From contig JAAKFL010000002.1 of the NCBI GenBank assembly GCA_011065065.1, positions 1-45,831 on the forward strand: DNA of 45,831 nucleotides. The letters are read 5' to 3'. Source of the stretch: Chlamydiota bacterium (GTDB lineage Bacteria; Chlamydiota; Chlamydiia; Chlamydiales; SLFE01). The notes below the pieces were generated by a model. It had not been told where the DNA came from, did not search any database, and saw only the letters and a list, made by a program, of their open reading frames with translations. The translations under genes and the position numbers were made by a program. Shown in pieces: positions 2,945-40,470 of this stretch (the first letter of the stretch is position 1; each line of letters begins with the position of its first letter).

Positions 2945-3033
2945 CAGGATTAACAGGATCGTAAACGACAGGATTAACAGGATCCTTCTCCTATATCCTG
3001 TTTATCCTGTCGTTTACGATCCTGTTAATCCTG
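2945..3033. repeat. ATCCT-unit palindromic hairpin element, copy A1; probable bidirectional terminator
   Basis: The left arm 2945-2983 (caggattaacaggatcgtaaacgacaggattaacaggat) pairs with 2995-3033 over 39 bp with 1 mismatch; the loop is 11 nt. An A-run lies upstream and a T-run downstream. It sits between convergent genes. Confidence 0.8.
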
Positions 3034-3103
3034 ATATTTTTACCAAAACATTTGAAATTAATAGATTGTCAATTAAAGCCTTTCGCACTCCAAGAAATTT
3101 TTA

Positions 3104-4603
3104 TTAATCCATCATTTCCCAAAAGGCAGAGGGTAAGGCTTCGATGATATCCGAAGCGACCATCGAATAAGGGGTCTTCTCCGTGGCCGCTATTTCACCT
3201 GCTAAACCATGCGTGAAGACTCCATATATCGCTGCATGATAAGGTGTTAGCCCCTGACTGATCAACGAAGCTATCAGTCCTGTCAAGACATCACCACTTC
3301 CCGCTGTGGCCATGCCAGGGGTTCCCGTCGGGTTCACCCAAGTAGGCTCACCAGGATGAAAGATCCAACTTGGTCCCCCCTTCAATATCAGTGTCACCTG
3401 CTTTTTTTCACAATAGTCACGACAGGCATCAAGAAAATCCGCAGTGATACTTTTTGGTGAAGGAACTCTTAATAGCCGTGCCATTTCTCCGCTATGCGGA
3501 GTCAACACGGTCTGCTTCGGCAACGCAATTTCATGCTCAGATAAAATGGTCAAAGCATCGGCATCAATCACACAAGGCGTTTCGATCCGTGGCAACACGT
3601 TTTTACATAAATTTACTGTAGCTTCAGTACGGCCAATTCCCGGCCCGAAAAATACCGCTTTCCCGTGATTGAGATTTTCTACAATACCATCATAATCATT
3701 CGTTTGATAAGGTAGCTTGATCAATTCGTAAGGACTTGACGAAAGCTCCGCTTCCATTCCCACAGGATGCAGCAAACGCATCATCCCTGCTCCGCCTCTA
3801 AGTGCTGCAAAAGAAGCCAATAGAGCCGCTCCCGGCATACTCGGAGACCCCGCAAGACCGATTACCACCCCTGCTTGATATTTGTGGCGATTGCGTGTGA
3901 TCGGAGGTCGCAGCTCTTCGCACTGTTCCAGTGTGATCAAACGATAACTCGACTTCGCTTGATCGATATACTTTTGTTCTAAACCAAAATTAACATGAGT
4001 TAAGTTGCCCACATGATTCCAACCACCTTCCAAAAAGAATCCTTGCTTGGGCAAACCAAGATAAATGGTTTCGGTAGCGTGCAACCCTTCCCCTTCTCCG
4101 GTTTCTCCATTCAATCCCGAAGGGATATCAATGGCAATCGTCGGAAGCTCCGATTCGTTCACCATTTTCACAACCGATTGATAAGGTTCGCGCAACTCTC
4201 CGTGAAATCCTGTTCCAAACATCCCATCCACAATGACATCACATTGGTCAAAAAGAACATCGTAATTAGGATCTTTGTCGATGATCATTCCACCCGATGC
4301 CTCAAAACGTTTGTGATTCTTTTGACAGAGAGGAGAACACTCGCTGATCGGAGCCAATTGCAGAGCGGCAACGTGATATCCCCAAGACTTAAGACAGGTC
4401 CCGGCCACATAAGCATCGCCACTATTATTGCCTTTGGCACAAAGAAGAAGAATCCGTTTTCCTAAACGGAGATCCTGACAAAACTGTAAAACCGCTTCTG
4501 CCACTCCTTGCCCCGCAGCTTCCATAAAAAGCTCCTCGCTCGCCCCTTCGCTATAAGCGACCGACTCGATTCGGGCCATTTCCTTCGGAGTGACAATTTT
4601 CAT
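3104..4603 (-). CDS. nnr: bifunctional NAD(P)H-hydrate repair enzyme (YjeF_N epimerase + ADP-dependent dehydratase)
   Basis: 499 aa. The N-terminal YjeF_N-like part contains LLLCAKGNNSGDAYVAG. The C-terminal carbohydrate-kinase-like part contains FGPGIG and ATAGSGDVLTGLIASL. There is a 4-nt overlap with gpsA. Confidence 0.85.
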   Translation of the reverse strand: MKIVTPKEMARIESVAYSEGASEELFMEAAGQGVAEAVLQFCQDLRLGKRILLLCAKGNNSGDAYVAGTCLKSWGYHVAALQLAPISECSPLCQKNHKRFEASGGMIIDKDPNYDVLFDQCDVIVDGMFGTGFHGELREPYQSVVKMVNESELPTIAIDIPSGLNGETGEGEGLHATETIYLGLPKQGFFLEGGWNHVGNLTHVNFGLEQKYIDQAKSSYRLITLEQCEELRPPITRNRHKYQAGVVIGLAGSPSMPGAALLASFAALRGGAGMMRLLHPVGMEAELSSSPYELIKLPYQTNDYDGIVENLNHGKAVFFGPGIGRTEATVNLCKNVLPRIETPCVIDADALTILSEHEIALPKQTVLTPHSGEMARLLRVPSPKSITADFLDACRDYCEKKQVTLILKGGPSWIFHPGEPTWVNPTGTPGMATAGSGDVLTGLIASLISQGLTPYHAAIYGVFTHGLAGEIAATEKTPYSMVASDIIEALPSAFWEMMD

Positions 4604-5604
4604 AAGTGTTCCTCTTTCACATCCCGCTGCATCAAATAGGTAATCGCATCTTCAAGCTTGAGCTCATTGTGCAAAACCTTATGCAACCCTTCCGTAATCG
4701 GCATCTGAACTTCAGTCTCCTGGCTCAACTTAAGAGCCGCCTGGCATGAATAATACCCCTCGACAATCGTTCCAATTTCCTTTTGGGCCTGCTCGACCGA
4801 TCTACCCTGAGCAATCAATTGCCCAAACCGAAAATTCCGGCTTAAGGGAGAACTGCAGGTCATACTCAAATCACCCATTCCTGCAAGTCCACTAAAGGTC
4901 TCTGGACGACATCCTTTCGCCACAGCCAACTTCCGGATCTCGTGCAAACCCCGGGTCATCAGCGCCGCTTTTGCACTACTTCCCATATTTAACGCATCGG
5001 CCATTCCACAGCAAATCGCAATGATGTTTTTCAAGGCTCCCGCCAGGGCAATTCCCTCAATATCGGAATTCGGATAAACCCGAAGTGTCTCAGTGGTAAA
5101 GACTTCACAAATCTGATTCATGAGATCAAAGTCAAAACTCGTCCCGACTATCGAAGTGGGAAGTCCATGAATGATTTCTTGAGCAAAACTTGGTCCACTG
5201 ATCATCCCCACAAAACGCTTGTAATCAGAACCTAAGACATCCACTACCACATCGGGGAGAGTCAATCCCGAATCAATTTCAATCCCCTTTGAGGTCAAAA
5301 CCAAGGGACGACGATCGGTAAGGTATTTTTTTAATTCTGTGAGAACGGGCCTTAACCCACCAGTGGTCACAGATTCCACAATCATATCGGAGTCCTTTAA
5401 GGCCTCTTCAAGAGATGTGGTGAAAGTGATGGACTCTGGAGCGATAAAATCGGGATAGATGGGGTGAATTCTCGTTTGTTTCAGTTGGGCGCAAAGATCT
5501 GCGTCAATTGTCCACGCCACTACCTGGTGGCCCTTTTTGGCCAATAATGTCGCTAAACAAAAACCCCAACTTCCTGTACCTAAATAGCTTATTTTCATAT
5601 ACAT
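4600..5604 (-). CDS. gpsA: NAD(P)H-dependent glycerol-3-phosphate dehydrogenase
   Basis: 334 aa with an N-terminal Rossmann motif (YLGTGSWGFCLATLLAKKGH) and the GALKNIIAI motif typical of GpsA. Confidence 0.88.
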   Translation of the reverse strand: MYMKISYLGTGSWGFCLATLLAKKGHQVVAWTIDADLCAQLKQTRIHPIYPDFIAPESITFTTSLEEALKDSDMIVESVTTGGLRPVLTELKKYLTDRRPLVLTSKGIEIDSGLTLPDVVVDVLGSDYKRFVGMISGPSFAQEIIHGLPTSIVGTSFDFDLMNQICEVFTTETLRVYPNSDIEGIALAGALKNIIAICCGMADALNMGSSAKAALMTRGLHEIRKLAVAKGCRPETFSGLAGMGDLSMTCSSPLSRNFRFGQLIAQGRSVEQAQKEIGTIVEGYYSCQAALKLSQETEVQMPITEGLHKVLHNELKLEDAITYLMQRDVKEEHL

Positions 5605-5666
5605 CGATTGGTTAATTTTGTCCCATTATAACAATTAGGGGTCTTTTGGGAAACATCTAAACTTGA

Positions 5667-5702
5667 GTGACTATTCACAACATGTACGTGGTGAATAGTC
5701 AC
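5667..5702. promoter_or_regulatory. perfect 12-bp inverted repeat (GTGACTATTCAC-N12-GTGAATAGTCAC) upstream of gpsA; operator or hairpin candidate
   Basis: The arms 5667-5678 and 5691-5702 are exact reverse complements. The site lies 63-98 nt upstream of the gpsA start codon and is followed on the + strand by TTTGATTTTT. Confidence 0.3.
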
Positions 5703-5738
5703 TTTGATTTTTAAATTTCAAAGAAAAATTATAATTAC

Positions 5739-5823
5739 ATCCTGTCCATCCTAACAATCCTTTTTATCCTGTTACCCTGTGCTAAAAAAAACAGGATATA
5801 AGGATAGTCATGATTAACAGGAT
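5739..5823. repeat. ATCCT-unit palindromic hairpin element, copy A2 (degenerate, inverted orientation)
   Basis: The left arm is atcctgtccatcctaacaatcctttttatcctgt. The loop contains gtgctaaaaaaa, which is the reverse complement of the TTTTTTAGCAC loop of copies A4 and A5. The right arm, acaggatataaggatagtcatgattaacaggat, pairs only partly. The element ends 4 nt from the recD stop codon. Confidence 0.6.
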
Positions 5824-5827
5824 CAGA

Positions 5828-7480
5828 TTATTTCCCAACTCCAGAATAACGAACGCTCCTCTTCTCGATTGTCGCCCGCAATGTATCATCCGATCCCCAA
5901 ATGTCCACCTGCTTCCGAGCTCGTGTCACCCCAGTATAAAAGACTTCGCGACCAAAAATCTCGGCCCCCTGTGGCATCAGAAGCGCAACGTGATCAAACT
6001 CGCTCCCCTGACTTTTATGCACTGACATACAATAAGCATACTCAAAATTCGGTAACAGAATACTCGGAATCTTTTTCAACCCTTTCTCGACATCCAAAAA
6101 TATCGCAGTGTCTCCGTTCACCAAGACACCTGTATCCCCATTAAACAACCCAAAACGTGAATCGTTTTTCGTAATCATTATGGGCCGTGCAAAATCATTC
6201 TTCAGATTCTCAAAAATCTTTTGATTGAGACTGTCAACTCCGAATAACCCTCGCCGCAATGGGCTCAAAAGACAAAACGATTCCAAATAAGCTTTAATAG
6301 ACTCATAAGAAAGATCTTTCAGTTTTGGCTGAAGCTCTGATGCATACAGAACAATGTCTTGTAATAACTGGGAAATTCTTTCGGAATTAAAAGAGAGCTT
6401 TGTCACTCCCCGATCTTGTGAATTAAGAAGAAATAGCGATTTGTCCACATCCCCTTCATAAATCGCTTCCGACAAGTCACGAATTCCCTGCAGTTCGACT
6501 CGAATGCAATGTGTGAGTTCTCCCACCTCTTCTAACAGTCCGATCATATCAGTAAATAACGACCCCGCCTCAACCGGAGGCAATTGGTGAGAATCACCCA
6601 GTAACACCAAACGAGCTCCGTTCTTCACACACGACAACAACTGTGACATCATATGCACATCAATCATAGAACATTCGTCAACAATGATCACATCCTCCGA
6701 AAGAGGTCGCCCCTGACGAACTCCAGGCCGGATTCCCAGCAACGAATGAAGGGTCTGCGCTCGAAGCGTTTGAAATCCTTCCAAAGAATCACAAACTCGT
6801 TGAAAACTCTTCTGCAAGTTGATCGCGGCTTTTCCAGTTGGAGCAGTCAAAATGAATCTAGCTTTACTTTTTTGGTCAGGAGTAAATGCATCCCACAATA
6901 CTTGAATGAGAACTCCTGCTGCATGGGTTTTGCCGGTTCCAGGGCCTCCAGATATCACAGAAAGCGAATTCCAACAGGCAATTTGAATCGCTTTAGCTTG
7001 TTCAGGGAGAAGTTTCAAATTTGTAATATCAGGTTCTGGAATGGTTAATGAAGGTTGATGTTCGATTAATCTTTCAAAATGATGAATAAATAGCTTTTCA
7101 CATTGGTAATATTTTGGAAGATAGTAACGATGCGCTTCATGCTTTACAGGGATGTCGGGAAGGTTTTTTACGGCATTCAGTAAATGAGCTTCGACATCAT
7201 CCTTCAAGTTGTTCCACAAGGAACAAGGTTTAGGAATCACTTGATCTTCAATAGACACACATAAATTTCCTTGTCTTGTGGCTTGAGACAAGTAACAAAG
7301 AAACAGATAAACGTTTTCATGAGAATTTTTCGGAGCCGTTTTAAATGCAAGTTCCAAGTCAACAGAATCGATAAAACCTTGTTCAAATAGTGATTTCAGG
7401 AGGGAATATTGAGACAGTAAATCTGATTGATCCCTTCCTTCATATGTGGATAAAAGTTTTTGCGCTATTCCATACATCAT
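5828..7480 (-). CDS. recD: exodeoxyribonuclease V alpha subunit (SF1 helicase)
   Basis: Walker A GGPGTGKTH, motif II IIVDECSMID, and the C-terminal SVHKSQGSEF motif. I placed the start at the ATG at 7480, which overlaps the recB stop (TGATG); the ORF track extends to a TTG at 7498. Confidence 0.85.
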   Translation of the reverse strand: MMYGIAQKLLSTYEGRDQSDLLSQYSLLKSLFEQGFIDSVDLELAFKTAPKNSHENVYLFLCYLSQATRQGNLCVSIEDQVIPKPCSLWNNLKDDVEAHLLNAVKNLPDIPVKHEAHRYYLPKYYQCEKLFIHHFERLIEHQPSLTIPEPDITNLKLLPEQAKAIQIACWNSLSVISGGPGTGKTHAAGVLIQVLWDAFTPDQKSKARFILTAPTGKAAINLQKSFQRVCDSLEGFQTLRAQTLHSLLGIRPGVRQGRPLSEDVIIVDECSMIDVHMMSQLLSCVKNGARLVLLGDSHQLPPVEAGSLFTDMIGLLEEVGELTHCIRVELQGIRDLSEAIYEGDVDKSLFLLNSQDRGVTKLSFNSERISQLLQDIVLYASELQPKLKDLSYESIKAYLESFCLLSPLRRGLFGVDSLNQKIFENLKNDFARPIMITKNDSRFGLFNGDTGVLVNGDTAIFLDVEKGLKKIPSILLPNFEYAYCMSVHKSQGSEFDHVALLMPQGAEIFGREVFYTGVTRARKQVDIWGSDDTLRATIEKRSVRYSGVGK

Positions 7481-10400
7481 CAGCTCCCCGGATAACAAAG
7501 TTGTAATTGCGCTCGTTCACGATCGATAAAACAGACCCCAGAATCATTATGAAAATTCATTCCTCGCAAGAAAAGGTAATAGGTTCCCCCAAAACATTCT
7601 TCAAACGATCGCGTTTCAAAAGGCTTCAGATAACGTTCCAGAGCCTGTTGGTAAATAGCTGCTTGAAAATAATAATCATGCTCCTTCATGGCCTGTTCTA
7701 GATTATCTGCATGATAATCATCGCAAGAAGACCCTAACCAATTACTCTTCCAGTCAACAATGTAGTAAAGACCAGAACATTCAAATACAAAATCAATGAC
7801 CCCTTTTAGAAGGTTATCTGAGGGATTATTGGGATAAAGAAATTCGATTTCATGAAAACGAGATTCAGAAGGAATTTCGGATAAACTCACACCATTGACA
7901 AAAGGTTTCTTCAACGTATTAAATATGATCTCTCCAATGACATCACTCCATTCATGAAAGAGGGAATTCTTTGTAAAAGGCTCTATTAATGCTTTCAAAT
8001 CTTTTGAATTGAATGATTGTTCTACTTTTTCGTAAGAAATCGTTTCCAAAATTAAGTGAATAAGAAGACCAATATCTCTTCCAGAGGGTATTGTGTGAGG
8101 GCTTTTATCGGGATTGTTAAAGTCATGCGGAGGATTCAAAAGAGAAGTCGATGTGAGTGACTTTGTTAACGAGGAAAACGATTTAATCACTTGTTGTGTT
8201 CCTGGTATCGTCACTTTTTCTGGACACTTCAGATCAATTTCCTGTGCAACAAACTTGTAAGGTGCAGGGGAGATCGATGTTGCTAATGAATAAGAAATAT
8301 TATGTTGATGACCTTCGCGATCGATCCAATCAACAAAATTTTCCCCATGATTAAAGTGTGAAAGAAAAAGTTCGATAGGCGATGATTCTCCCTCCATAAT
8401 CTCTCCAGAACCATTTTCTTCTATCGCAATAGGGACATAAAGACGATGCTTAGCACGCGTTAATGCGACATAAAGTTGTCGCATTTTTTCTGAATCGATT
8501 TCTTTTTGAAAGTTGCGATACAGATCACTTTCTGGATCAGTTATAGCCACCAAATGACCTTCAGAGTCATTCTGAACAGGAATGAAGTTATCTTTCTTCG
8601 GAGTTCTATTCATCAGACCCAAGGGAACTACAATATCAAACTCTAATCCTTTACTCATATGAATTGTCAAGATTTCTGCAGTTTCAGCATCGCGATTTTG
8701 ATGACATTTCAATCCCTCATCATCGTTAAACTCCATTGTCTCAAAATCATTCAAATACTGTTGACAGCGTATTAAGGAGCCGTTTTGTTGATACTGAAAT
8801 TCACTGATTAAATCACAAATTTGAACAAATTCATGAAAAAATTCTTCTGAATACTGAATCATAGACTCATAAAGTGTTCCTGAATCCTTCCATGTTGTTC
8901 GCAGTAATTGATCAATAAATTCTGCGAATCCTTTTTTTAATGCTTTCTCGCGTAAATGGCTCCACTTCTCACACACTCCCAACAAAACATCTTCCTCATC
9001 AAGCTGCTTTAACTGATGATGAGTCCATCGAAGCAAACTGCCTCCAAACAGTATTTTGAGTGCACTAATGTCTTTTGGATGATTTAACGCCTCTAAAAGT
9101 TCTTTTGTAGATTGAAAAGCAGGAGATTTCAATAAAATCTTTTGTTTTTGTTTACGAGTTGGAACAGAAAACCGCTCACAATAACGTGAGAAGTCTTCCG
9201 CTTGATATCGATCTCTTACTAATATTGCCCATTGAGAAAATGAAATATTGCATTCGTTTTTCATTCGAATCATTTCATTGACAATTGTGGAATAGAATAA
9301 TTCCTCCTGCAACGGCTTCGGAGGCCATTTTGAGCCACTTTTCTTCCCTTCTCCAATAATAAAGTGTATGGATCCTTTGTCATCATGAAATTCAATTTGG
9401 TTTGATTGTTTCCCTGAAAATACTTGTTTGCACGAAATACTTTTCATTAATTTCGGTAAGTGAAAAAATTCAGGGATTCTCTCTTTTGCAAACAAAGCAT
9501 TCATTGCATCCACAAGACGTGGTTCTGAACGGTAATTTGTATCTAAAGAATATAAATGATCTTCTCCTAATGATTCAGCTGCTGACATATAAGTATAGAT
9601 GTCAGCCTGTCGAAACGCATATATGGACTGCTTGGGATCTCCCACAAGATAAAGGTGAGATCTTTTTTCTGGATCTTTTAAAAACAATTGCCTGAATATT
9701 CCCCATTGAATGGGATCCGTATCCTGAAATTCATCAATAATTACAGCATTATATTGACCACGTATACGATTTGCAAAATTGGCTCCACAGGACCTTCTCA
9801 GCATCTTTTTTAACAAATCATCATACTGATATTTCTCTTCATGACTTAAATAATTTTCTAAAAGTTTCTGACAATCATGTGCCATTCTACCTAATATTAC
9901 ATAAGGATCACACGCTTCATTGATAATTGGATGCAAATTTTCCTGAACAAAATTTACTAATTCAGGATAATGCAAATTTTCAGGTAAAGCTGCTTTACAT
10001 TTCATGTTGTCAGGATGAAGAACTTTTGCATAGGTTAACCCCTCTGAGACTAGCTTTTCGAAGGCATTTTTTGTGAATTCTTGATCAAATAAAGAAGAAA
10101 AATATTTAATGTTCTGTAAAATATCTGGATTAATTTCTTTTTGACGGTTAGTGATTTTTTTAAACGATGGAGCCAACTGATAAAAATCTTCGAGTATTTT
10201 TTCTGATTGATATTTGTTTTGGATCAGCACAAATCTCTCTGAAAAATTTTTAAAAAGGGCTTCAAAACACTCTGTGGAGACGATTTTGAGTCCTCTCGAT
10301 AGCAAATTTAAAAGTGCATTTTCAACTCTTCGAATATCATTTCCGTATTTAGATAAAACAAATTTCAGTTGCACAGTGCTGTATGAGCCTTGATTTAACC

Positions 10401-16809: not shown

Positions 16810-16847
16810 TCCGTATTTAGGATATTAGACGCAGATAGACACAGATG

Positions 16848-16880
16848 GCCGCAGATAGAATCTTAATCTGCGGCTTTTTT
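16848..16880 (+). terminator. Rho-independent terminator after the GNAT gene
   Basis: The stem gccgcagat (16848-16856) pairs with atctgcggc (16866-16874). The loop is 9 nt, followed by TTTTTT (16875-16880). Confidence 0.7.
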
Positions 16881-16973
16881 ACGTCACAAATTTGATATCT
16901 GATTTTTTATGATTCGTCTTCAAAAATCCTACCAAAATACCAGGAAAATTTCTTGATACAATTTCTGGACGTT

Positions 16974-16999
16974 TTATCCTGTTAATCCTTACTATCCTG
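16974..16999. repeat. solo half-arm of the ATCCT-unit element (no inverted partner)
   Basis: The sequence ttatcctgttaatccttactatcctg has three ATCCT units spaced 9 nt apart. No complementary arm lies nearby. Confidence 0.4.
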
Positions 17000-17042
17000 C
17001 GTGGAAAACTTCCCCTCTTGAAACCGAATAAAAAATAATAGC

Positions 17043-17123
17043 AACATCCTGTTCATCCTTAACATCCTATTATCCTGTATCAGAAAAACAGGATAATAGG
17101 ATGGCAAGGATGAACAGGATGTT
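17043..17123. repeat. ATCCT-unit palindromic hairpin element, copy A3; probable bidirectional terminator
   Basis: The 36-nt arms 17043-17078 and 17088-17123 pair with 2 adjacent mismatches; the loop is 9 nt. An A-rich run lies upstream and TTTTT downstream. It sits 13 nt from the stop of the outer-membrane protein gene. Confidence 0.8.
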
Positions 17124-17135
17124 TTTTAACTCACA

Positions 17136-18727: not shown

Positions 18728-18803
18728 CATCCTTACTATCCTTTTATCCTGTTTTTTTTAGCACTTGGGAACAGGATAAAAGGATAGTAAGGATGGACAG
18801 GAT
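18728..18803. repeat. ATCCT-unit palindromic hairpin element, copy A4
   Basis: The perfect 25-bp arms are 18728-18752 and 18771-18795. The 18-nt loop begins TTTTTTTAGCAC. One extra unpaired unit (gacaggat) extends to 18803. The element lies 65 nt downstream of the stop of the 986-aa gene. Confidence 0.8.
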
Positions 18804-18867
18804 ATCTATTTAAATGATTGATAATGAGTAATTTTGATATTTAAGAGATCGCGAAACTTCGCGCAAA

Positions 18868-21901: not shown

Positions 21902-21990
21902 GGCTCGACTTTAGGTTTTTTTTGGTTTTAATTTCACTAATCTATTGCCCTTCAGTGACTTAAAATCAAAAAAAATCCGCAAGTCGAGCC
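21902..21990. repeat. imperfect ~29-nt inverted repeat in the divergent intergenic region
   Basis: The sequence ggctcgactttaggttttttttggtttta pairs with taaaatcaaaaaaaatccgcaagtcgagcc. The outer 10 bp are perfect (21902-21911 and 21981-21990). Confidence 0.4.
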
Positions 21991-22076: not shown

Positions 22077-22727
22077 ATGGAAAACAAAAAGACATATTCA
22101 CCTTATGAAAGAAATAATCATCAAAAAAACAGTGAATCTTTAGATAAAAAAGATAATTTACACAAAGTAAATTTACAATCAGTCATTAATGGAATGAAGC
22201 CAGGTGATTGGAAAGATGAAAATTTTCTTAAAAGCCACGAGCAGCTGTTAAATCACGTAAAAAAACTCGATTTAACACATATTGAAATTTCAGCAGATTT
22301 TCTTACATTATTGGGTGAAAACTGCCCAGAACTCAAATATTTAAAACTTCCCCCCAAATACACTGATGATGAGTTACTCAAACACCTTCCCAAAGGATTA
22401 ACCGAACTGAATTTGCATAGCTGCAAAAATATCACTGACATAGGGCTTGCGTACATAAGAGATCTAAAAGATCTGACTTCCCTTGATTTGCTGTGCTGCT
22501 TTAAAATCACAGATGCTGGGCTTGCCAACCTTGAAAATTTAACTGGATTAACCTCGCTTGATTTGTCTGGCTGCAACGGAATCTCAGATTTAGGTCTTGT
22601 GCACCTACAAGAACTAACTGAATTGACAGAACTGAATTTGTTTGGCTGTAAAAGAATCACCCGAAGAGGGCTTATTTACCTGGAAAAATTGGAAAGATTA
22701 ACCTCTCTTAACTTGTTTCGTTGCTAA
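22077..22727 (+). CDS. leucine-rich repeat protein, cysteine-containing (FBXL/AMN1-type) LRRs; eukaryote-like
   Basis: 216 aa with at least five ~25-aa repeats of the form LTxLxLxxCxxITDxGLxxLxxL (for example LTSLDLSGCNGISDLGLVHLQELTE). A good SD (AGGAG) precedes the ATG. Confidence 0.75.
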   Translation: MENKKTYSPYERNNHQKNSESLDKKDNLHKVNLQSVINGMKPGDWKDENFLKSHEQLLNHVKKLDLTHIEISADFLTLLGENCPELKYLKLPPKYTDDELLKHLPKGLTELNLHSCKNITDIGLAYIRDLKDLTSLDLLCCFKITDAGLANLENLTGLTSLDLSGCNGISDLGLVHLQELTELTELNLFGCKRITRRGLIYLEKLERLTSLNLFRC

Positions 22728-22870
22728 GAGGGTGTCTCAATAGATGCTTAGTTTATAACTAAGCCCCGCCTTAATTTTTCATGGATATTTGAATGAAAAT
22801 CAGTTAAAATCACTTTATGATTCATTTTTTTAAAAATTGTATTTAACTCAAATTTTTGGATAAACCACCT

Positions 22871-24793: not shown

Positions 24794-24807
24794 GAAATGG
24801 AGTATGC

Positions 24808-25563
24808 ATGTCAAAAATCATTGCGATCAGCAGCTTTAAAGGAGGCACCGCCAAAACCTCAACAGCACTACACGTCGCCAGCGCCCTGACCCTTTTTCAT
24901 AAGAAAAAGGTTCTCCTTGTCGACTTCGATTCCCAAGCTAACCTCACCACAGGACTTGGTTTCGACCCCGATGAACAAGAAAGCGCCGCACCTGTTTTAC
25001 AGGGAAACGTACCTGTCGAAGACGTCATTAAAAAAACCGGAGTCGAGCAGCTCGATTTAATCCCAGGCGATACATGGTTAGAACGGGTAGAAGTCACCGG
25101 AAACCTCGCAGCTGATCGTTATTCACACGAACGTCTGCACGATGTCATTTCTCAGCTAGATTATGACATCATCATAATCGATACACCACCCTCACTCTGC
25201 TGGCTCACCGAATCCGCACTCATCGCCGCTGACCAAACCCTTGTGTGTGCTACCCCAGAATTCTATAGCATTAAAGGACTTGAAAGACTCGGTCAATTCA
25301 TTGAACAAATTGGACAACGACACCCCCTTGGGACGCTCGGAGTCGTCATGTCTTTCTGGAATGCACGAGGAAAAAGCAACGAAACCTTCTTAGACGTCAT
25401 TGATGATACCTTTCCGGACAAAGCTTTTGATGCAAAAATCCGACGAGACATCTGCGTCTCTGAAGCTGCCGTTTACGGACAACCCGTCTTCAACGCTCAT
25501 CCAAAATCCCGTGCAGCCGAAGACTACAAAGCCTTAACGAAAGAAATATTAAAAAAATTGTAA
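24808..25563 (+). CDS. ParA/Soj/MinD-family partition ATPase (pGP5-D-like)
   Basis: 251 aa with the deviant Walker A SSFKGGTAKTST and Walker B IIIIDTPP. Confidence 0.85.
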   Translation: MSKIIAISSFKGGTAKTSTALHVASALTLFHKKKVLLVDFDSQANLTTGLGFDPDEQESAAPVLQGNVPVEDVIKKTGVEQLDLIPGDTWLERVEVTGNLAADRYSHERLHDVISQLDYDIIIIDTPPSLCWLTESALIAADQTLVCATPEFYSIKGLERLGQFIEQIGQRHPLGTLGVVMSFWNARGKSNETFLDVIDDTFPDKAFDAKIRRDICVSEAAVYGQPVFNAHPKSRAAEDYKALTKEILKKL

Positions 25564-25589
25564 AGCCGTTTTACATTGGAGTCAAAAAC

Positions 25590-26330
25590 ATGAGTCAAGT
25601 GAATGCATTACTTTCAGAACGATTAAACAAAAATAAAAAACAAAAATCATCAAAAACTGCGGCTTTAGCCAAGCGTTCAGCGAGTGGAAATCTTTCGGGA
25701 TTTGCGGGTGTTTTCAGTATGAGCGAGTTAAGTCCTCATGAAAAGGAGCTTTTGGAGAATATTCTGCATGAGTATGCCTATGAAAATGAGGATGTGACGG
25801 AAGATCTTTCTACGTTGATTTCAATCACATCGGAAGTGAAGGCAATTAACAATCAGGCGGCTTTATTGCATGGAGAAAGAATTAAGCGGGCTCAAAAAAT
25901 TCTGAAAGAGTACCGTGATGGTGCGTTTACTACTTGGTTGATTGCCACGTATGGGAATCGTCAGACTCCGTATAACTTTCTTCAGTATTATGAATTTTAT
26001 GAGTCCTTATCGACTCCGTTGAAGCAGCAAATTGAATCAATGCCACGACAGGCAATCTATACGTTAGCGAGTCGAGAAGGAGATCTTAATGCCAAGCATG
26101 AGATTGTGCAGCAGTATCAAGGGGAATCTAAGAATGAGCTCCTTAAGATTATTCGCGATACATTTCCTCTTTCTGATCAAGACCAACGTCGTCGGAAGCA
26201 AGGTGAGGTAGCCATTCAGCTTTTAAAGCGGGTGCTCTCGCTGTTATCGGAGAAAAAAGCGCGTATGACTAAAAGGCAAAGAGAAACGATTCAAGATTAC
26301 TTAGAAACTATAGACGAGTTAGTGGAATGA
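25590..26330 (+). CDS. virulence-plasmid protein pGP6-D-related protein (chromosomal paralog)
   Basis: 246 aa. The segments EVKAINNQAALLHGERIKRAQKIL and TTWLIATYGNRQTPYNFLQYYEFYESL...MPRQAIYTLASREGDLNAK match my recollection of chlamydial pGP6-D (...YNALAYYELF...IPYKSAYILAARKGDLKTK). It lies directly after the ParA-like gene. Confidence 0.7.
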   Translation: MSQVNALLSERLNKNKKQKSSKTAALAKRSASGNLSGFAGVFSMSELSPHEKELLENILHEYAYENEDVTEDLSTLISITSEVKAINNQAALLHGERIKRAQKILKEYRDGAFTTWLIATYGNRQTPYNFLQYYEFYESLSTPLKQQIESMPRQAIYTLASREGDLNAKHEIVQQYQGESKNELLKIIRDTFPLSDQDQRRRKQGEVAIQLLKRVLSLLSEKKARMTKRQRETIQDYLETIDELVE

Positions 26331-27712
26331 ATTCATATGTGAGCCCTCTTTCAGACCGATATGCTAGTGTTGAAATGAGAAAGATATTTTCTCCGCACTT
26401 CAAATATTCGACATGGCGAAAGCTTTGGGTAGCTTTAGCGGAGGCGGAGCAAGAACTTGGTCTACCCATAACAGATGAACAAATCCAGCAGCTGTGCGAA
26501 CAGGTTGATAACATTGATTTTGAAGCTGTTGAGAAGTACGAGTCTGAACTTCATCACGACGTGATGGCGCACATCAAAGCTTATGGGGATCTTTGCCCTC
26601 TCGCCGCACCCATCATTCATTTAGGATCGACTTCCTGTTATGTCACAGACAACACGGACTTAATTCAGATTCGTGAAGCGTACCGTCTGATTTTCCCGAA
26701 ACTTTTGAATATTATAGATCAACTAGCACAATTTGCCGATCGTTTTGCAGAGCTTCCCTGTCTTGGCTTTACCCATTTTCAACCAGCTCAACTCACGACA
26801 GTCGGAAAACGAGCTTGTATGTGGTTACAAGACCTTGTTGTCGACTTTCACGAAATGACTCACGCGGCATCACAATTAAAATTTTTGGGAGCCAAAGGGG
26901 CAACAGGAACCCAAGCTTCTTTTTACGCTTTATTTGATAATGATGTGGAAAAATTGGACCAACTTGATCATTTAATTGCCAAAAAAATGGAATTTGAAAA
27001 CCTACTCACAATAGCGGGACAGACCTATTCACGAAAGCAGGATATTCTGGCTCTATCACCATTAAGCAGTTTTGCATCCAGCGTCCACAAGTTTGCAACC
27101 GATATACGCCTCTTATCGCATTTAAAAGAGATTCAGGAGGGTTTTGGAGCGAAACAGGTTGGTTCTTCCGCGATGCCTTATAAACGCAATCCAATGCTTT
27201 CTGAAAGGCTTTGTGCGCTCTCTCGCTTTATTATTGCATCCGCAGAAAACACATACTACACATGCGCGACACAATGGTTAGAAAGAACTTTAGATGATTC
27301 AGCCAATCGTCGCCTTGTCATTCCTGAAATCTTTTTGACCACTGATGCGCTGCTGAATATTCTGCAGAAAGTGATTAGTTCCCTGACTGTAAATCCAGAG
27401 ATTATTGCCCGTCGAGTCAAAGATGAGCTGCCATTCATTGCGACGGAAAATATCATGATGGAGGCGGTCAAGAATGGGGGTAACCGGCAGAAAATGCACG
27501 AGCGGCTTCGTCAACATAGTATAGCGGTTACGAATGAAGGAAAACAGGATGAATTGCTACAAAGGTTAAGTGAAGATCCTGAATTTAATCTTCAGGATCC
27601 TGAAGCTTATACTGATCCCAGTCATTATATCGGAGCTTCATCTTATCAGGTGAAACGATTTCTTAAGGAAGAAGTGGATCCAATTCTTAAAACCCAATCC
27701 CTTACAATTTAA
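26327..27712 (+). CDS. purB: adenylosuccinate lyase
   Basis: 461 aa with the fumarate-lyase signature GSSAMPYKRNP and an N-terminus (SPLSDRYAS.EM..IFS) typical of PurB. ATGA overlap with the upstream gene. Confidence 0.88.
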   Translation: MNSYVSPLSDRYASVEMRKIFSPHFKYSTWRKLWVALAEAEQELGLPITDEQIQQLCEQVDNIDFEAVEKYESELHHDVMAHIKAYGDLCPLAAPIIHLGSTSCYVTDNTDLIQIREAYRLIFPKLLNIIDQLAQFADRFAELPCLGFTHFQPAQLTTVGKRACMWLQDLVVDFHEMTHAASQLKFLGAKGATGTQASFYALFDNDVEKLDQLDHLIAKKMEFENLLTIAGQTYSRKQDILALSPLSSFASSVHKFATDIRLLSHLKEIQEGFGAKQVGSSAMPYKRNPMLSERLCALSRFIIASAENTYYTCATQWLERTLDDSANRRLVIPEIFLTTDALLNILQKVISSLTVNPEIIARRVKDELPFIATENIMMEAVKNGGNRQKMHERLRQHSIAVTNEGKQDELLQRLSEDPEFNLQDPEAYTDPSHYIGASSYQVKRFLKEEVDPILKTQSLTI

Positions 27713-27729
27713 CACATCTTTTTTACAAG

Positions 27730-27905
27730 TCGGATATAAAAAATCACCACAGAGATCACAGAGCACACAGAGTTAAGAAATTTAATAAGAAGAATTTTAC
27801 ACCATAATTTTTTCGTGAATTTTCCATGATAAATGTAAATACTTGACAAACTAAATTACTAACTCTGTGTGCTCTGTGATCTCTGTGGTGATTTTTTATA
27901 TCCGA
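27730..27905. mobile_element. MITE-like element or long palindrome B: perfect 46-bp inverted arms around an 84-nt spacer
   Basis: The arm 27730-27775 (tcggatataaaaaatcaccacagagatcacagagcacacagagtta) is the exact reverse complement of 27860-27905. The arms contain three tandem 9-mers ending in CACAGAG. No coding capacity. Confidence 0.7.
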
Positions 27906-27962
27906 TTTGGAAAAAGATGCGTAGAAACGTAAGGGCTTGCCTTTGCACTCCAAAAAGTTTAT

Positions 27963-29495
27963 TTAGTAAGGCAGTAGAATCCCAAAGACATAAAAGACCC
28001 CGCCAACAATAATCGTAGGTGTGATGGCAGCTAGGAGCAAATAGAGAGGCGCTATACCATCTGGAAAATACTTTCCAAGGATAGCTTGACCCGCCGGGTT
28101 GGGAGCATTCGCAATGACCGTTAATCCACCTCCCGTCACAGCCCCTGCTACTACGGCATACTTCATCGCATCGGTAAAGCCAGGCACAAGCGTTGCCAAA
28201 TAGGTAATTTCAGCATTGTCATTAAACGCCGTAAGAATCGTCGAAATAACCATTATCATTGAACTTGATGCATCGCTTAAGATAGGACCAATCCACCAAG
28301 CTTGCAGCCCCCCATGTACAATCAGCCCCGCTAAGAAAAATCCAACGAGTATAGGTGTTTTTAAATTCAAATGAGTTTGATAAGGAAGAGTAGCCCTGTA
28401 AAAACCTAAGAAGATCAGGAACGTTCCAATGAAGATGACAGGGTAGTGAGAATGAACCACGGTCCAAGCCAAAATCACTAAATGGAATAAGCTTATCCAA
28501 AATGGAATAACATCTTCTTTTTCAGATTCTTCTGCGCTAAACGTACTCTCGGCAAATTTCTTTTTCTTTTCAAGAGCATCAAATTCTGATCGAAAGAAAG
28601 TAAAATAAACAATGTTGGAAATCAAAATTCCAATGACCGCTTTCCAGCCAAAATGTGACGCCATAAAAGCTGTATCCCAATGCCACGCCTTACTCACCAT
28701 AAGAACAGCCGGTGCTGCAAAATTCGTAAACACTCCACCAATTGAAATGTTGACAAACAGTAAACCCAATGTCGCGTAAGCCATTTTAAGACTAGGCTTT
28801 AGACGAAAAAATTGTTTTCCTAACAACATGGCGGAAATGGTCATGGCTCCTGGTTCTGTAATGAACGAACCCAAAAGTGGTCCCACAGTCAAAATAGTTA
28901 ACCACCATGCTTTAACGGACCCTCCACCAAGCCTTGAAATCGCCTTAACGCTATCCTCAGCCACTTTGAATATGGGTTTTGTCTGCGCTAATGCCATAAT
29001 CACCACGACAAATATAGGCTCGGTGTACGAACGATTATTGAGGTAATGCAAAGCGGTGCTCCAATCATAAACAAAAGACATTATGACCATCAAAGGAATC
29101 ACCCAAATTCCAAAAACCACCTCTACTTCGCTCATAAAATGGAGAATTTCCGATCCAAAAGTTTCGCGCCGGACTCCGGTTTTTCTTGCATTTAGTTCTA
29201 TCAGCCAATGAGATAACACAGCAAGTTTATGGGAAAAGAAAGTATGCGTGACAGCCATTAAAAAAAGCCCGAGGGCAAGGATATTAAATGGCTGAACCTT
29301 AACACGATAAACAAGTTTATTCCAAACTCCTTCAATTTGCTGATCGTCATACCCATCCGCAGTTAAAATCAACTCATACCTTGGCTTTTCCAGTCCTGTG
29401 TCTCTCGCTACAAAATAGAGCATTTCTGTGATTGCCAGAACAAAAACGATGTACATGAGAAGTAGATAGATGGGAGTTTTTTTAACGTTTTGCAT
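27963..29495 (-). CDS. polytopic inner-membrane transporter (possibly DUF1504 / putative Na+/H+ antiporter-like)
   Basis: 510 aa with at least 10 hydrophobic segments. The C-terminal GGGLTVIANAPNPAG motif recalls the putative Na+/H+ antiporter family. The family assignment is from memory only. Confidence 0.45.
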   Translation of the reverse strand: MQNVKKTPIYLLLMYIVFVLAITEMLYFVARDTGLEKPRYELILTADGYDDQQIEGVWNKLVYRVKVQPFNILALGLFLMAVTHTFFSHKLAVLSHWLIELNARKTGVRRETFGSEILHFMSEVEVVFGIWVIPLMVIMSFVYDWSTALHYLNNRSYTEPIFVVVIMALAQTKPIFKVAEDSVKAISRLGGGSVKAWWLTILTVGPLLGSFITEPGAMTISAMLLGKQFFRLKPSLKMAYATLGLLFVNISIGGVFTNFAAPAVLMVSKAWHWDTAFMASHFGWKAVIGILISNIVYFTFFRSEFDALEKKKKFAESTFSAEESEKEDVIPFWISLFHLVILAWTVVHSHYPVIFIGTFLIFLGFYRATLPYQTHLNLKTPILVGFFLAGLIVHGGLQAWWIGPILSDASSSMIMVISTILTAFNDNAEITYLATLVPGFTDAMKYAVVAGAVTGGGLTVIANAPNPAGQAILGKYFPDGIAPLYLLLAAITPTIIVGGVFYVFGILLPY

Positions 29496-29514
29496 TCATG
29501 ACCCCAAGCATTTA

Positions 29515-29543
29515 TTGAGCTTAATTCCTAAAGACACTATTTT
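29515..29543 (+). promoter_or_regulatory. sigma70-like promoter candidate for tatA-tatC
   Basis: TTGAGC (29515-29520), a 17-nt spacer, then TATTTT (29538-29543), about 50 nt upstream of tatA. Confidence 0.25.
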
Positions 29544-29592
29544 ATAACTTGTATGTTAAATAAACACCACTAATTTGACTAAAGGATTTATT

Positions 29593-29754
29593 ATGATTGG
29601 TACCGGTGAAATTATTGTGATTCTTTGTGTTGTATTACTTTTGTTTGGCGGCAAAAAACTTCCTGAGTTTGCCAAAAGCCTAGGAAAAGGAATCCGTGAA
29701 TTTAAAAAAGCTTGTCAAGGTACAGACGAAGACCCTAAAGACTCATCAGAATGA
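29593..29754 (+). CDS. tatA: twin-arginine translocase subunit TatA/E (53 aa; absent from the ORF track because of its length)
   Basis: Hand translation gives [53 protein letters not shown]. This is the classic TatA TM helix, FGxxKLP hinge and amphipathic helix. An SD-like aaagga lies upstream. The stop overlaps the tatC ATG (ATGA). Confidence 0.8.
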
Positions 29755-30677
29755 ACACACACAACTTGTCTCCCGAATTCTGGGACCATGTTGAAGAACT
29801 GCGAAAAACGATCATCCGTTGCTTCATTACCATTGCGTTAGCAACAGCTCTCTGTTTCAGCTGTTTTTCCTGGCTTTACCCAGTGATCACGCACCCTCTC
29901 AACACAAAAAAGCAAGTCCAGAAAACTGTCATTTCAACCGAAAGACACTCAAACCCCAACCCCTATTCGATCACGATCCCTGCGCCTCCTCATTCCATCA
30001 CTTTTTTTTCTGATTCAGCTTACATGACGAAAGACAATCGGATTTCATTGCCTCCCAATGGATATATTGACATAGAAATGATAAATAACCCTCACTCCCT
30101 TGTGATTTTGGGTCCGTTAGAAGGAATCACGACCTCGTTAAAAATTAGCCTTTGGTTGGGACTTGTTATTTCTTTTCCGTTTTGGGGATTTTTCATGATG
30201 CAGTTCCTCCTCCCGGCCCTGAAAAACCACGAGAAAAATTTTATTTGTCCTTTTGCTTTCTGTTCGCTTTTATTCGTTTTTTTAGGAGGATTTATTGCCT
30301 TCACCTTTTTCATCCCGTTTACCAATGAAATTTTGCAGAATTTTAATCAAAAACTGGGAATTAACTTGTGGTCGATTTCCCATTATCTCAATTACACATT
30401 GATCATGTCGCTCTCCACAATTATTGCTTCAGAACTAGTTCTCGTGCTGTTTTTCTTAGTACATTACGGAAAAATTAATGATAAAAAAATGAGAAAATGG
30501 CGCCCAGGAGTTCTTCTGGGGATCTTTGTACTCAGCGCCATCCTGACTCCGCCAGATATATTGACACAGATTATCCTAGCACTCCCCATGGCTGGAATCT
30601 ATGAATTAGCAATTCTTTATGCCAAAATCAAAAGAAGTCAAAACCGTTTAAACCAGTATCTCATCGAGAATTTTTGA
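29751..30677 (+). CDS. tatC: twin-arginine translocase subunit TatC (with an enlarged first periplasmic loop)
   Basis: 308 aa with the N-terminal [15 protein letters not shown] motif and six hydrophobic segments. About 60 extra residues lie between TM1 and TM2 compared with typical ~250-aa TatC proteins. Confidence 0.8.
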
Positions 30678-32060
30678 CCTTCTTTCATGCCAGTCGGATA
30701 CTTTTATCCGCTTCAATTTAAAGCCCAACTTCTTGGCAATAAGGTTTTTGATCAAAGAGCTTCCCAAATAATGACCACTGCTGGAAAAGTGTGAGGGGCC
30801 ATCAACTTCGATTAATAGATTGTAATCTTTTAAATAAATATCGAAAAACAACCCTTCAACAAAATACTCATTATCTACACAGAATCCATTTGATTTAAGA
30901 CACTTCGAAATTTTTTGGTGTGTTCTACTTGATTCTGGAGATTCGCTTGTAGCTAATTTTTTTAAGATTTTAGTCTTATTCGGATAGTCATCTGAACCTC
31001 TTAGAACAAGCATTACCTGATGATATTGTTGTACATATTCAATCTTATCTAAAGATTCTGAACCTGCAATCATCTTATCAAATAAAGTTTTAGGTAAATT
31101 TAATCCAAAAACCGCAAAAGCCCAAGCTATATTCGCAATATCTTGGCTGTTGAAACCCCTGACCTTATCGCGCCCTTCGCAACTAAGAGCTGTCATAAGC
31201 CTTTCGTCATGAATCCCAAGGGTCGCAAAAGCCAAAGCTGTAATCGCAATCCCTTGGCTGTTGAAACCCCTGACCTTATGGCGCGCTTCGCAACTAAGAG
31301 CTGTCATAAGCTCTTCGTCATGAATCCCAAGTGTCGCAAAAGCCCAAGCTGTATTTGCAATATTTTGACTGTTGAAACCCCTGACCTTATGGTGCGCTTC
31401 ACCGCTAAGAGCTGTCATAAGCCTTTCGTCATGAATCCCAAGTGTCGCAAAAGCCAAAGCTGTACTCGCAATCCCTTGGCTGTTGAAACCCCTGATCTTA
31501 CGGCGCGCTTCACTGCTAAGAGCTGTCATAAGTTCTTTGTCATGAATCCCAAGTCTCGCAAAAGCCAAAGCTGTACTTGCTATGTTTCGACTTTCAAAGT
31601 CATTAATTTTTTCAATAGTTAAATCTCGAACAAATTGAAAAACTTTATGACTTTGAAGGTTTCGAAAATCTCCTCTTTGTTTGGCTAATTTGTGAAAAAA
31701 AGTCGAACAATTAATAAAATCAAAATTTTTGTGATGGTTACTGGCAACATTCAAAATTTCATTTACTGAATTGGCTTTTGTTATTTTTGAATTGATTTGC
31801 CTTGGATTTAATCGGTATTCTGTTTTTCTTTTATTTTTAGTTCTATCGATATTATGACATCTTGTTTGAATCGAAGAATCCTTACGATGAAATTCTTCCA
31901 CTTTCGATCTTGATCTTTGCCAAGGTTCTCTTCCTGATGATTCTTTCTTTTTGGCAGTATAATTTCTTCCTTGAAAGTCACGCCCCTGATATGAACGATC
32001 TCTGAATCTCTCTTCTCTTGAAAAACCTTTTATATTTGAATTAAAATAATATGGTTCCAT
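30648..32060 (-). CDS. RAP-domain protein with FASTK/heptatricopeptide-like 37-aa repeats; eukaryote-like candidate effector
   Basis: 470 aa with a basic R/K/G-rich N-terminus. There are four tandem 37-aa repeats (FNSQGIASTALAFATLGIHDERLMTALSGEAHHKVRG) plus degenerate flanking units. The C-terminal RAP-like motif is NLLIEVDGPSHF...LKRIKVSDW. Confidence 0.75.
   Translation of the reverse strand: MEPYYFNSNIKGFSREERFRDRSYQGRDFQGRNYTAKKKESSGREPWQRSRSKVEEFHRKDSSIQTRCHNIDRTKNKRKTEYRLNPRQINSKITKANSVNEILNVASNHHKNFDFINCSTFFHKLAKQRGDFRNLQSHKVFQFVRDLTIEKINDFESRNIASTALAFARLGIHDKELMTALSSEARRKIRGFNSQGIASTALAFATLGIHDERLMTALSGEAHHKVRGFNSQNIANTAWAFATLGIHDEELMTALSCEARHKVRGFNSQGIAITALAFATLGIHDERLMTALSCEGRDKVRGFNSQDIANIAWAFAVFGLNLPKTLFDKMIAGSESLDKIEYVQQYHQVMLVLRGSDDYPNKTKILKKLATSESPESSRTHQKISKCLKSNGFCVDNEYFVEGLFFDIYLKDYNLLIEVDGPSHFSSSGHYLGSSLIKNLIAKKLGFKLKRIKVSDWHERRSKILDEILV
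31155..31598 (-). repeat. 4 x 111-bp in-frame tandem coding repeats inside the RAP-protein gene
   Basis: Successive 111-bp units are very similar at the DNA level, for example the recurring ttgaaacccctgaccttatggcgcgcttc...gctaagagctgtcataagc...tcgtcatgaatcccaagtgtcgcaaaagcc. They create a spurious + strand ORF at 31143-31622. Confidence 0.85.
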
Positions 32061-32213
32061 AAAACATCCTCAATAACTTTAATTATGAATTAACAAAAAC
32101 AAATAATATCATAAAAAAAATGAAACAACAATAAAAATATTTTTTTATTATTCTAAAAGAAAAGTTAAATACGAGGTGGTTGGCGTTTAAACAGTGGCCT
32201 CGGGAAAAAACCA

Positions 32214-32290
32214 CATCTTGTCCATCCTTACAATCCTTTTATCCTGTTTTTTTAGCACAGGATAAAAGGATTGTAAGGATGGACAGGATG
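32214..32290. repeat. ATCCT-unit palindromic hairpin element, copy A5; probable bidirectional terminator
   Basis: The 34-nt arms 32214-32247 and 32257-32290 pair with 1 mismatch. The 9-nt loop is TTTTTTAGC. AAAAAA lies upstream and TTTTTTT downstream. The arm sequence is nearly identical to copy A4. Confidence 0.8.
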
Positions 32291-40460: not shown

Positions 40461-40470
40461 GAAGAAAAAA

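Follow-up and report, generated by a model that had tools for sequence, protein, structure and literature searches.

Intergenic ATCCT-unit hairpins in a Chlamydia-related bacterium as candidate gene-less copies of palindromes associated with GxxExxY genes

The stretch of DNA analysed here (the window) is 45,831 nucleotides (45.8 kb) of core chromosome from a Chlamydia-related bacterium (contig JAAKFL010000002.1). It carries gpsA, yjeF, recBCD, thrS, purB, tatC, ung, eno, recA and a gene for a DUF1601/RAP protein, and the closest named homologues of its genes are found in Chlamydiia and Parachlamydiaceae. Its intergenic regions contain five long hairpins (copies 1 to 5), the arms of which are tandem arrays of short units with the core ATCCT, facing arrays of AGGAT, together with one solo arm and two palindromes built from other units (Table 1). 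The five hairpins and the solo arm reported in a preliminary description of this DNA all lie where that description had placed them, and the 8-9-nt spacing of their units is far beyond chance: the window has 19 occurrences of ATCCT-N4-ATCCT where 0.14 would be expected, and 7 of ATCCT-N3-ATCCT where 0.16 would be. No transposase, no REP-associated tyrosine transposase (RAYT; REP, repetitive extragenic palindromic sequence) and no Y1_Tnp protein is encoded in the 45.8-kb window.

Table 1. Palindromic elements of the window, with arm structure, surroundings and predicted RNA folding energy (kcal/mol); aa, amino acids; ORF, open reading frame
Element	Position	Strand	Arms and unit order	Flanks and nearest stop codon	Folding
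Copy 1	2938-3040		2938-2983 / 2995-3040, 46 nt, 93% complementary; [ACAGGATnn]x4, 11-nt loop, [ATCCTGTnn]x4, the canonical (AGGAT-first) arrangement	A7 and T5; between convergent stop codons 2891 and 3104	-65 and -70 (two strands)
Copy 2	5739-5823		degenerate hairpin, ATCCT arrays first; loop GTGCTAAAAAAAA, reversed relative to copies 4 and 5	ends 4 nt past recD-like stop codon, upstream of gpsA	-36.9, z -5.4
Copy 3	17043-17123		17043-17078 / 17088-17123, 36 nt, 94%; ATCCT-first	T6 at 3' side; end 12 nt from stop codon of 472-aa gene (17136)	-56.5 and -57.3
Copy 4	18728-18849		18728-18753 / 18770-18795, 26 nt, 100%; ATCCT-first; hairpin 18728-18803 including one extra unit	after stop codon of 990-aa gene (18868)	
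Copy 5	32207-32342		32207-32247 / 32257-32297, 41 nt including A/T tracts, 93%; ATCCT-first; hairpin 32207-32297	after stop codon of 133-aa ORF (32357)	-60.9, z -14.8
Solo arm	16974-16999	+	three ATCCT units, partner arm absent		no structure
CTCTGTG-class palindrome	27720-27915		AAAAAATCAC[CACAGAGnn]x3, ~90-nt spacer, [nnCTCTGTG]x3 GTGATTTTTT	A6/T6; between convergent stop codons of purB (27712) and Na/H antiporter gene (27963)	
ATCTGCG-class palindrome	16826-16880	+	TTAGA[CGCAGAT]AGA[CACAGAT]GGC[CGCAGAT], 9-nt loop AGAATCTTA, [ATCTGCG]GC, T6	begins 17 nt past stop codon of GNAT gene (16809)	

In copies 2 to 5 the ATCCT arrays precede the AGGAT arrays, and in copy 1 the order is opposite. Copy 1 had been called the more divergent; beyond its divergence it has this opposite architecture. 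The loop TTTTTTAGCAC is common to copies 4 and 5 and is reversed in copy 2, making three copies in all, not three plus a reversed fourth. The earlier suggestion that the element has polarity is supported. Copies 4 and 5 also agree over ~10 nt on the left (GGAAAnAACCAC) and over ~45 nt of AT-rich tail (18804-18849 and 32298-32342), so that the copied segment is ~130-150 nt long and more than a stem. The arms start with ACATCCTG or (A)ACAGGAT and end with CAGGATGT or ATCCTG. Over the four alignable copies the ATCCT cores are invariant, and four inter-core pairs have changed on both sides with pairing kept. RNA folding predicts very stable structures for all five hairpins, with energies between -37 and -70 kcal/mol and z-scores between -5.4 and -15.5.

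Each of the five copies follows a stop codon at a distance of 4-64 nt, within the 4-70 nt given in the preliminary description. Its statement that the hairpins always occur at gene 3' ends is correct for five of five copies but is statistically uninformative, there being too few intergenic regions, and only three of the five have clear A- and T-tracts, where that description had spoken of most copies. By our own reading of the sequence, at least five T residues occur within the next 8-12 nt at 6 of the 10 hairpin sides.

The two further palindromes, which the preliminary description had missed while listing the five copies and the solo arm correctly, belong to other unit classes. The CACAGAG/CTCTGTG unit and the CACCAC/GTGGTG termini of the element at 27720-27915 also flank genes for GxxExxY proteins, a family described below, in Bacteroides finegoldii (L259) and Bernardetia (L258), and the CTCTGTG unit occurs as a gene-less palindrome in L089. 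The unit of the ATCTGCG-class element, which looks like the terminator of the GNAT gene, flanks the GxxExxY gene of L015 and also makes up a palindrome without a gene in L046. This element, the solo arm and copy 3 are stacked in one intergenic region (16810-17135). The arms that define these elements consist of at least three tandem 8-10-nt units with a conserved core, with an inverted array of the same unit opposite. Copy 1 and both sister elements have the canonical polarity (AGGAT-type array, spacer or gene, ATCCT-type array), which is reversed in copies 2 to 5. Three unit classes, ATCCT (five copies), CTCTGTG and ATCTGCG, are thus present in 45.8 kb, and all three bracket GxxExxY genes in other genomes. 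Their co-occurrence is the strongest tie between the window hairpins and a class of elements found across phyla.

The window was compared with contigs of relatives (L228-L232 and L261-L263; 72-83% protein identity, ~74 kb non-redundant). Chlamydia-like organisms are generally repeat-poor, and no ATCCT or CTCTGTG array was found in the ~74 kb, compared with about one element per 6-9 kb in the window. The convergent gap between yjeF and a hypothetical gene, which in three relatives is an overlap, 1 nt or 23 nt, measures 212 nt in the window and holds copy 1. Upstream of the 472-aa gene the relatives have a hairpin-free gap of 131-281 nt, compared with 313 nt and copy 4 in the window. Just after the same gene there is a short terminator of canonical type in L261 and L262, AGAGAGTGG-loop-CCACTCTCT, and in the window copy 3 stands at the same distance from the stop codon. 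Since the relatives are array-free at these three orthologous sites, the elements are lineage-specific insertions and not ancestral sequence, which the same sequence at every site would have implied. On this sequence comparison, the hairpins have spread recently in this chlamydia-related lineage.

Nor is the motif confined to the window. One genome per species was scanned for ATCCT-N4-ATCCT-N4-ATCCT-N3/4-ATCCTGT, a pattern with a chance expectation of ~0.1, and it was found at no fewer than 117 genome loci in ~15 phyla; the counts for other phyla given below rest on the matches listed (at least 117 loci). The phyla and groups include Planctomycetota, Verrucomicrobiota, Kiritimatiellota, Lentisphaerota, Chlamydiota (two metagenome-assembled genomes of Parachlamydiales), Acidobacteriota, Gemmatimonadota, Chloroflexota, Desulfobacterota, Bacteroidota, Chlorobiota, Armatimonadota, Leptospirales and some Proteobacteria. 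The unit consensus is ATCCTGTnA (G 83% and T 62%, at positions free of the search pattern), and 471 of 567 intervals follow a 9-nt period; the longest arrays have 13 units. An apparent 9-9-8 spacing signature was not used because it is biased by the search pattern itself. An inverted partner lies within 150 nt of 103 of the 180 arrays in genome loci, compared with 6 of 233 in viral contigs, which served as a control and in which 221 of 233 arrays are coding tandem repeats inside long ORFs. AGGAT-first pairs outnumber ATCCT-first pairs in the genome loci by 70 to 18. The spacers between paired arrays are 3-123 nt long, with a separate cluster at 340-423 nt.

No relatives of GxxExxY were found in the viral contigs, and a plasmid search with copy 5 gave no match. 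A single viral-contig locus (L162, 2073-2226) has a non-coding nested ACAGGAT/ATCCTGT palindrome. Against Rfam at gathering thresholds only a tRNA matched in the window, and a permissive scan of six foreign elements returned only sub-threshold look-alikes of miRNA hairpins. Our literature searches found neither these repeats nor their association with GxxExxY described, in keeping with the earlier remark that the repeat was not recognised as a described family.

The spacers of 340-423 nt hold an ORF of ~125 aa that encodes a GxxExxY protein (TIGR04256, E 7e-41; PF13366), giving a full cassette of ~0.5 kb: [ACAGGAT]n, GxxExxY gene, [ATCCTGT]n. The preliminary description had looked to a RAYT-like or other cognate protein; a RAYT is lacking in the window, and GxxExxY now emerges from other genomes as the candidate. 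At least nine GxxExxY ORFs occur in the 117 loci listed. Seven of the nine directly abut ATCCT/AGGAT arrays, and the other two lie between inverted arrays built on another 9-nt unit, CGCAGATT/AATCTGCG in L015 and CACGAAGG/CCTTCGTG in L095. In one case a 248-nt spacer keeps a remnant of the GxxExxY N-terminus. Three genes were picked by protein similarity alone (P0135, P0142 and P0232), and each is preceded by AGGAT arrays and followed by ATCCT arrays.

Short repeats also adjoin all eight plasmid-borne GxxExxY genes. Clean inverted flanks are present in three of these: the genes of Bernardetia (L258) and B. finegoldii (L259), with CACAGAG/CTCTGTG arrays, and that of L225, with a single unit. 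Among the plasmid genes, that of Gemmatirosa has a CGCGGAT/ATCCGCG hairpin downstream, that of Treponema a 10-bp inverted repeat (CACGGATTCG), that of Prevotella palindromes at both sides and that of Sphingomonas a one-sided CGCGAAGG array. The repeats are direct, not inverted, in Persicobacter (AATCC arrays) and in a Fusobacteria plasmid (~50 nt, containing AATCCGTG).

A score for inverted repeats between the two flanks of a gene was compared for 20 GxxExxY genes (median 16.5) and 798 control ORFs of the same loci (median 7.5; p = 1.5e-6). With only the 11 GxxExxY genes that were ascertained independently p was 0.008, with 6 of the 11 above the control 95th percentile. The control outliers include two genuine RAYTs with REPs of their own, which differ from the ATCCT arrays; this validates the test and also shows that the ATCCT arrays are not RAYT REPs.

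The flanking unit varies with the protein. Proteins flanked by ATCCTGT arrays form one cluster, mostly at 55-71% identity, though they come from different phyla, and those flanked by CTCTGTG or CTTCGTG form another. The units seen beside other GxxExxY clades are CTCTGTG, CTTCGTG, ATCTGCG and ATCCGCG (8-10 nt), and unit classes besides ATCCTGT also occur as gene-less palindromes.

The family itself, PF13366/TIGR04256, is listed as of unknown function (PMC3424549). It comprises 35,400 clusters at 50% identity (E <= 1e-3). A PDB sequence search with GxxExxY gave no hit. Its conserved motifs are D...ExK and QxxxY, and for a confident AlphaFold2 model (pLDDT 89) the best structural matches, at TM scores of ~0.5, are Cas4 SSO0001, lambda exonuclease, the nuclease domains of AddAB/AdnAB, and MGME1. 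The motifs and the model matches together identify GxxExxY as a predicted minimal RecB/Cas4-type PD-(D/E)XK nuclease core. Many representatives have 250-290 aa and match the family in two stretches; these forms may be tandem fusions of two nuclease cores.

We consider it probable, with considerable room for doubt, that the window hairpins are gene-less copies of widespread tandem-unit palindromes associated with GxxExxY, that they spread recently and that they now probably act as terminators. Because each GxxExxY clade has its own unit, we infer that the arrays are DNA recognised by the nuclease, each enzyme recognising arrays of its own clade's unit. Acting in trans, such a nuclease would allow both the cassette and its gene-less derivatives to spread, either by a homing-like repair, in which the gene homes into empty palindromes with the arrays as homology arms, or by transposition of whole cassettes. 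Three unit classes would in this way have colonised the intergenic regions of this lineage recently. Copies just after stop codons would have survived, where a 25-40-bp stem with A/T tracts could serve as a strong, often bidirectional, intrinsic terminator or as a 3'-end protector. Such a present-day effect, termination or 3'-end protection and often in both directions, is the likely prediction from the positions near stop codons, the T-tracts and the location of copy 3 at the place of a canonical terminator. A simple terminator scan did not call the hairpins, being blind to such long stems and loops, and its calls were not enriched over shuffles.

Several observations weigh against this reading. 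The 45.8-kb window has no GxxExxY gene or remnant, and no target-site duplication was seen at the boundaries of copies 4 and 5 by alignment. The window units are more degenerate than those elsewhere, with G following ATCCT in just 40%, and four of the five copies are ATCCT-first, the minority form in other genomes, of which no gene-containing example was seen. The nine first gene examples were drawn from loci selected for arrays, and P0135, P0142 and P0232 were the best-scoring matches of a profile that had itself been made from genes linked to arrays. The covariation of unit and protein cluster could reflect co-inheritance of the cassette without recognition of DNA by protein. As regards termination, the orientations of genes around arrays in other genomes are near-even (++ 28, +- 25, -- 24, -+ 21, by crude ORF calls), and among 60 AGGAT-first palindromes a T-tract lies downstream of 3 and an A-tract, its equivalent on the other strand, upstream of 11. 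Given the even orientations, a general 3'-end rule was dropped, and with the scarcity of T-tracts the family as a whole is not a terminator family.

More broadly, and with less confidence than we place in the account of the window, GxxExxY proteins may be the nucleases of selfish cassettes that cross phyla, have clade-specific units, drive the spread of the cassette and of thousands of gene-less palindromes, and are able to invade obligate intracellular chlamydiae, where the derivatives have been co-opted as terminators; they would be a PD-(D/E)XK counterpart of the RAYTs and the REP doublets forming hairpins (REPINs). There is a substantial chance that this is a mechanistically new class, of the kind in which a palindromic repeat has a cognate nuclease gene.

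A different account is that a conserved host factor, for instance a nucleoid protein, an enzyme acting on DNA ends or cruciforms, or an RNA-binding protein, uses the arrays as binding sites or as a structural motif, and that GxxExxY genes are passengers inserting there. The invariance of the ATCCT core beside variable inter-core positions, the conservation of the motif over ~15 phyla and the fact that most copies are gene-less would all suit such a factor, as would the GxxExxY genes that sit between complete palindromes and not just inside them (L062 and L260). A single factor would not explain several unrelated units, each tracking a GxxExxY clade, and the array-free state of close relatives of the window organism is unlike that of an essential host site; we regard this account as unlikely. 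One version of it was a CsrA sponge, repeated AGGAU resembling a CsrA site. This idea cannot explain several unit classes, and CsrA is not known from Chlamydiota or Bacteroidota, though both carry arrays; it was kept only as part of the host-factor account.

To an equally modest degree we entertain a function at the RNA level, in which the arrays pair into a duplex that brackets the ORF for RNase III-type processing or stabilisation, gene-less hairpins are stable 3' stem-loops, and the nuclease has no part in spread. The ORF-carrying intervening sequences of 23S rRNA are a precedent for a duplex-bracketed ORF. Such a function fits the extreme predicted stability of the stems, the four compensated inter-core pair changes, and the U-tracts of the window copies and their occurrence in place of a canonical terminator. 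It also fits the location of GxxExxY cassettes in housekeeping operons, 2-48 nt from their neighbours, for example between fabD and fabG in Sphingomonas (L227) and between ABC ATPase and binding-protein genes (L233 and L096). On the other hand, a pure stem needs neither a periodic unit nor a core shared across phyla, the arms around the gene in L077 match at the cores but at only 6 of 12 inter-core positions, T-tracts are as scarce elsewhere as noted above, and dispersal to new sites is left unexplained. Inter-core complementarity of the arms did not discriminate between gene-containing and gene-less elements.

That the hairpins are ordinary terminators grown in place by local duplication of units, with no mobility and a merely convergent resemblance across phyla, is already disfavoured and appears very improbable. 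The placement of all five copies after stop codons, several with A/T tracts, agrees with it, and short units can expand by slippage, as the existence of arrays of up to 13 units allows. It does not account for the flank and tail that copies 4 and 5 share outside the hairpin, for three unit classes, gene-linked elsewhere, together in one window, or for a four-unit pattern found so far above its expectation. Bidirectional intrinsic (Rho-independent) terminators do resemble the window copies in having a stem-loop right after stop codons, bordered by an A-tract at one side and a T-tract at the other; they differ from the window copies, whose AT-rich stems of 25-40 bp are periodic and recur from locus to locus, with loops of 9-16 nt.

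Mobilisation as REPs or REPINs by a RAYT (a Y1 HUH enzyme), or as a Correia-like miniature inverted-repeat transposable element (MITE) by a DDE transposase, is scarcely credible, for although intergenic palindromes are abundant and RAYT genes occur in some array-bearing genomes (L022 and L043), those RAYTs are flanked by different repeats, the window has neither RAYT nor transposase, no target-site duplication was seen and the arms lack the REP tag. That tag, the tetranucleotide GTAG or CGTC, is conserved at one end of the imperfect palindrome of 20-40 bp (PMC3733652), and it is absent from all window arms. The RAYTs in question (L022 1574-2209 and L043 286-1341) have their own REPs at their flanks and coexist with ATCCT arrays in the same genomes; that of L043 also has a Fic-like C-terminal domain.

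The REPIN-RAYT system is nevertheless the closest analogue, although every defining REP/RAYT feature that was tested is lacking here. Both systems have short multi-copy intergenic palindromes, a small nuclease-type gene between inverted repeats, gene-less copies far from the gene, and lineage-specific expansions (PMC3116915, PMC8266576, PMC3733652). They differ in the protein, which here is a PD-(D/E)XK GxxExxY protein, known from sequence and model, and not a Y1 HUH enzyme; in the arms, which here are tandem 8-9-nt arrays and not a single 20-40-bp palindrome with a tag; and in that the unit here is conserved over ~15 phyla and the GxxExxY genes are multi-copy. The earlier suggestion of a REP-, BIME- or Correia-like mobile repeat was therefore right in so far as this is a dispersed family with a candidate cognate protein; the tag, the target-site duplication and the association with RAYTs did not materialise.

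Other known systems are more distant. Correia elements and other MITEs have terminal inverted repeats derived from an insertion sequence (IS) and a short target-site duplication. Correia/NEMIS elements and MITEs resemble the present elements in being small and non-coding, with inverted ends and intergenic dispersal, and in that they can affect transcript 3' ends; here, by contrast, the arms are arrays of units, and neither a terminal inverted repeat of a known IS nor a target duplication, TA or other, was seen. Homing endonuclease genes and ORF-carrying 23S rRNA intervening sequences have a small, selfish-looking ORF central in a palindromic or structured site, with gene-free sites elsewhere. 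The cassettes share this ORF inside a palindromic site and the existence of gene-free versions, but their site is a dispersed repeat of high copy number where those systems occupy one conserved gene, they encode a protein of another family, and homing itself is putative. The iterons of plasmids are direct 17-22-bp repeats near a replication initiator gene or origin, whereas the 8-9-nt units here form inverted arrays beside chromosomal core genes, with no rep gene in the window, and the proposal of an iteron-like array does not stand in the plasmid sense. The short tandemly repeated repetitive (STRR) sequences have 7-nt units of other sequence and are confined to cyanobacteria, and we know of no cognate gene described for them. 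They too consist of very short units in tandem between genes and serve, or could serve, as genome-wide repeats, but share only this short-unit idea with the present arrays. STRR heptamer arrays are mentioned for heterocystous cyanobacteria (PMC4748335, PMC2670836).

If the reading proposed here is true, it would provide the first clue to the function of the small nucleases of PF13366/TIGR04256, a very large family, and would explain the conspicuous palindromes between genes of Planctomycetota, Verrucomicrobiota, Acidobacteriota, Bacteroidota, Desulfobacterota, Chlamydiota and others. It would add, beside REP-RAYT, a second and mechanistically distinct partnership of repeat and nuclease, and would mean a recent invasion of intergenic regions in chlamydia-like organisms, with possible replacement of canonical terminators. 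The pairing of unit and clade makes the hypothesis directly testable in vitro and would offer short programmable recognition sequences.

Some further resemblances were set aside. Those to the DnaA box (TTATCCACA) and to 16S rRNA (ACAGGAUUA) were judged coincidental. A sigma-70 -35 element (TTGACA) inside TTGACAGGA units was rejected because the G position is variable, the core sites of integron attC do not fit, and CRISPR was excluded.

A number of other loci with arrays deserve mention. In L107 (6313-6560) a 16-nt direct repeat, ATTGAAACCAGGAAAA, flanks one AGGAT...ATCCT element; it may have arisen as a target duplication, or else a larger unit may have been copied in tandem. No such repeat was seen at the window copies. 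A 136-aa ORF in L089 (2440-2950) with the PD-(D/E)XK-like motif VDVIAYD...IQVK is bracketed by CACAGAG and CTCTGTG arrays and has no Pfam or NCBIfam hit, and small genes besides GxxExxY may use the same cassette boundaries. L243/L244 and L246 encode an identical GxxExxY protein and differ downstream: two full palindromes follow in L243/L244, whereas L246 diverges right after the AGGAT array and continues with a different gene. The arrays may thus be break points of recombination or rearrangement. As a speculation, the loop of ATCCT-first elements (GCTAAAAAAA on one strand) resembles the usual outer flank of arrays (ATCCTGTCTAAAAA) and might represent a junction of two ends or a circular permutation.

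Finally, the window has features unconnected with the unit arrays. The protein encoded at 30648-32060 (- strand) combines DUF1601, RAP and FAST-kinase-like domains with an MTES_1575-type endonuclease-like C-terminus, a eukaryote-like architecture typical of amoeba-associated chlamydiae, and relatives have F-box and leucine-rich-repeat (LRR) proteins nearby. A non-periodic inverted repeat at 40294-40465, unrelated to the ATCCT family, has arms of 60 nt, 92% complementary, separated by 52 nt; it overlaps the final codons of the ORF at 38545-40317 and ends 6 nt before the convergent stop codon of the 5-formyltetrahydrofolate (5-FTHF) cyclo-ligase gene. A further inverted repeat (21902-21990), with 37-nt arms (78% complementary) and T8/A8 tracts, occupies the divergent region between the 990-aa gene and the gene for an LRR protein.

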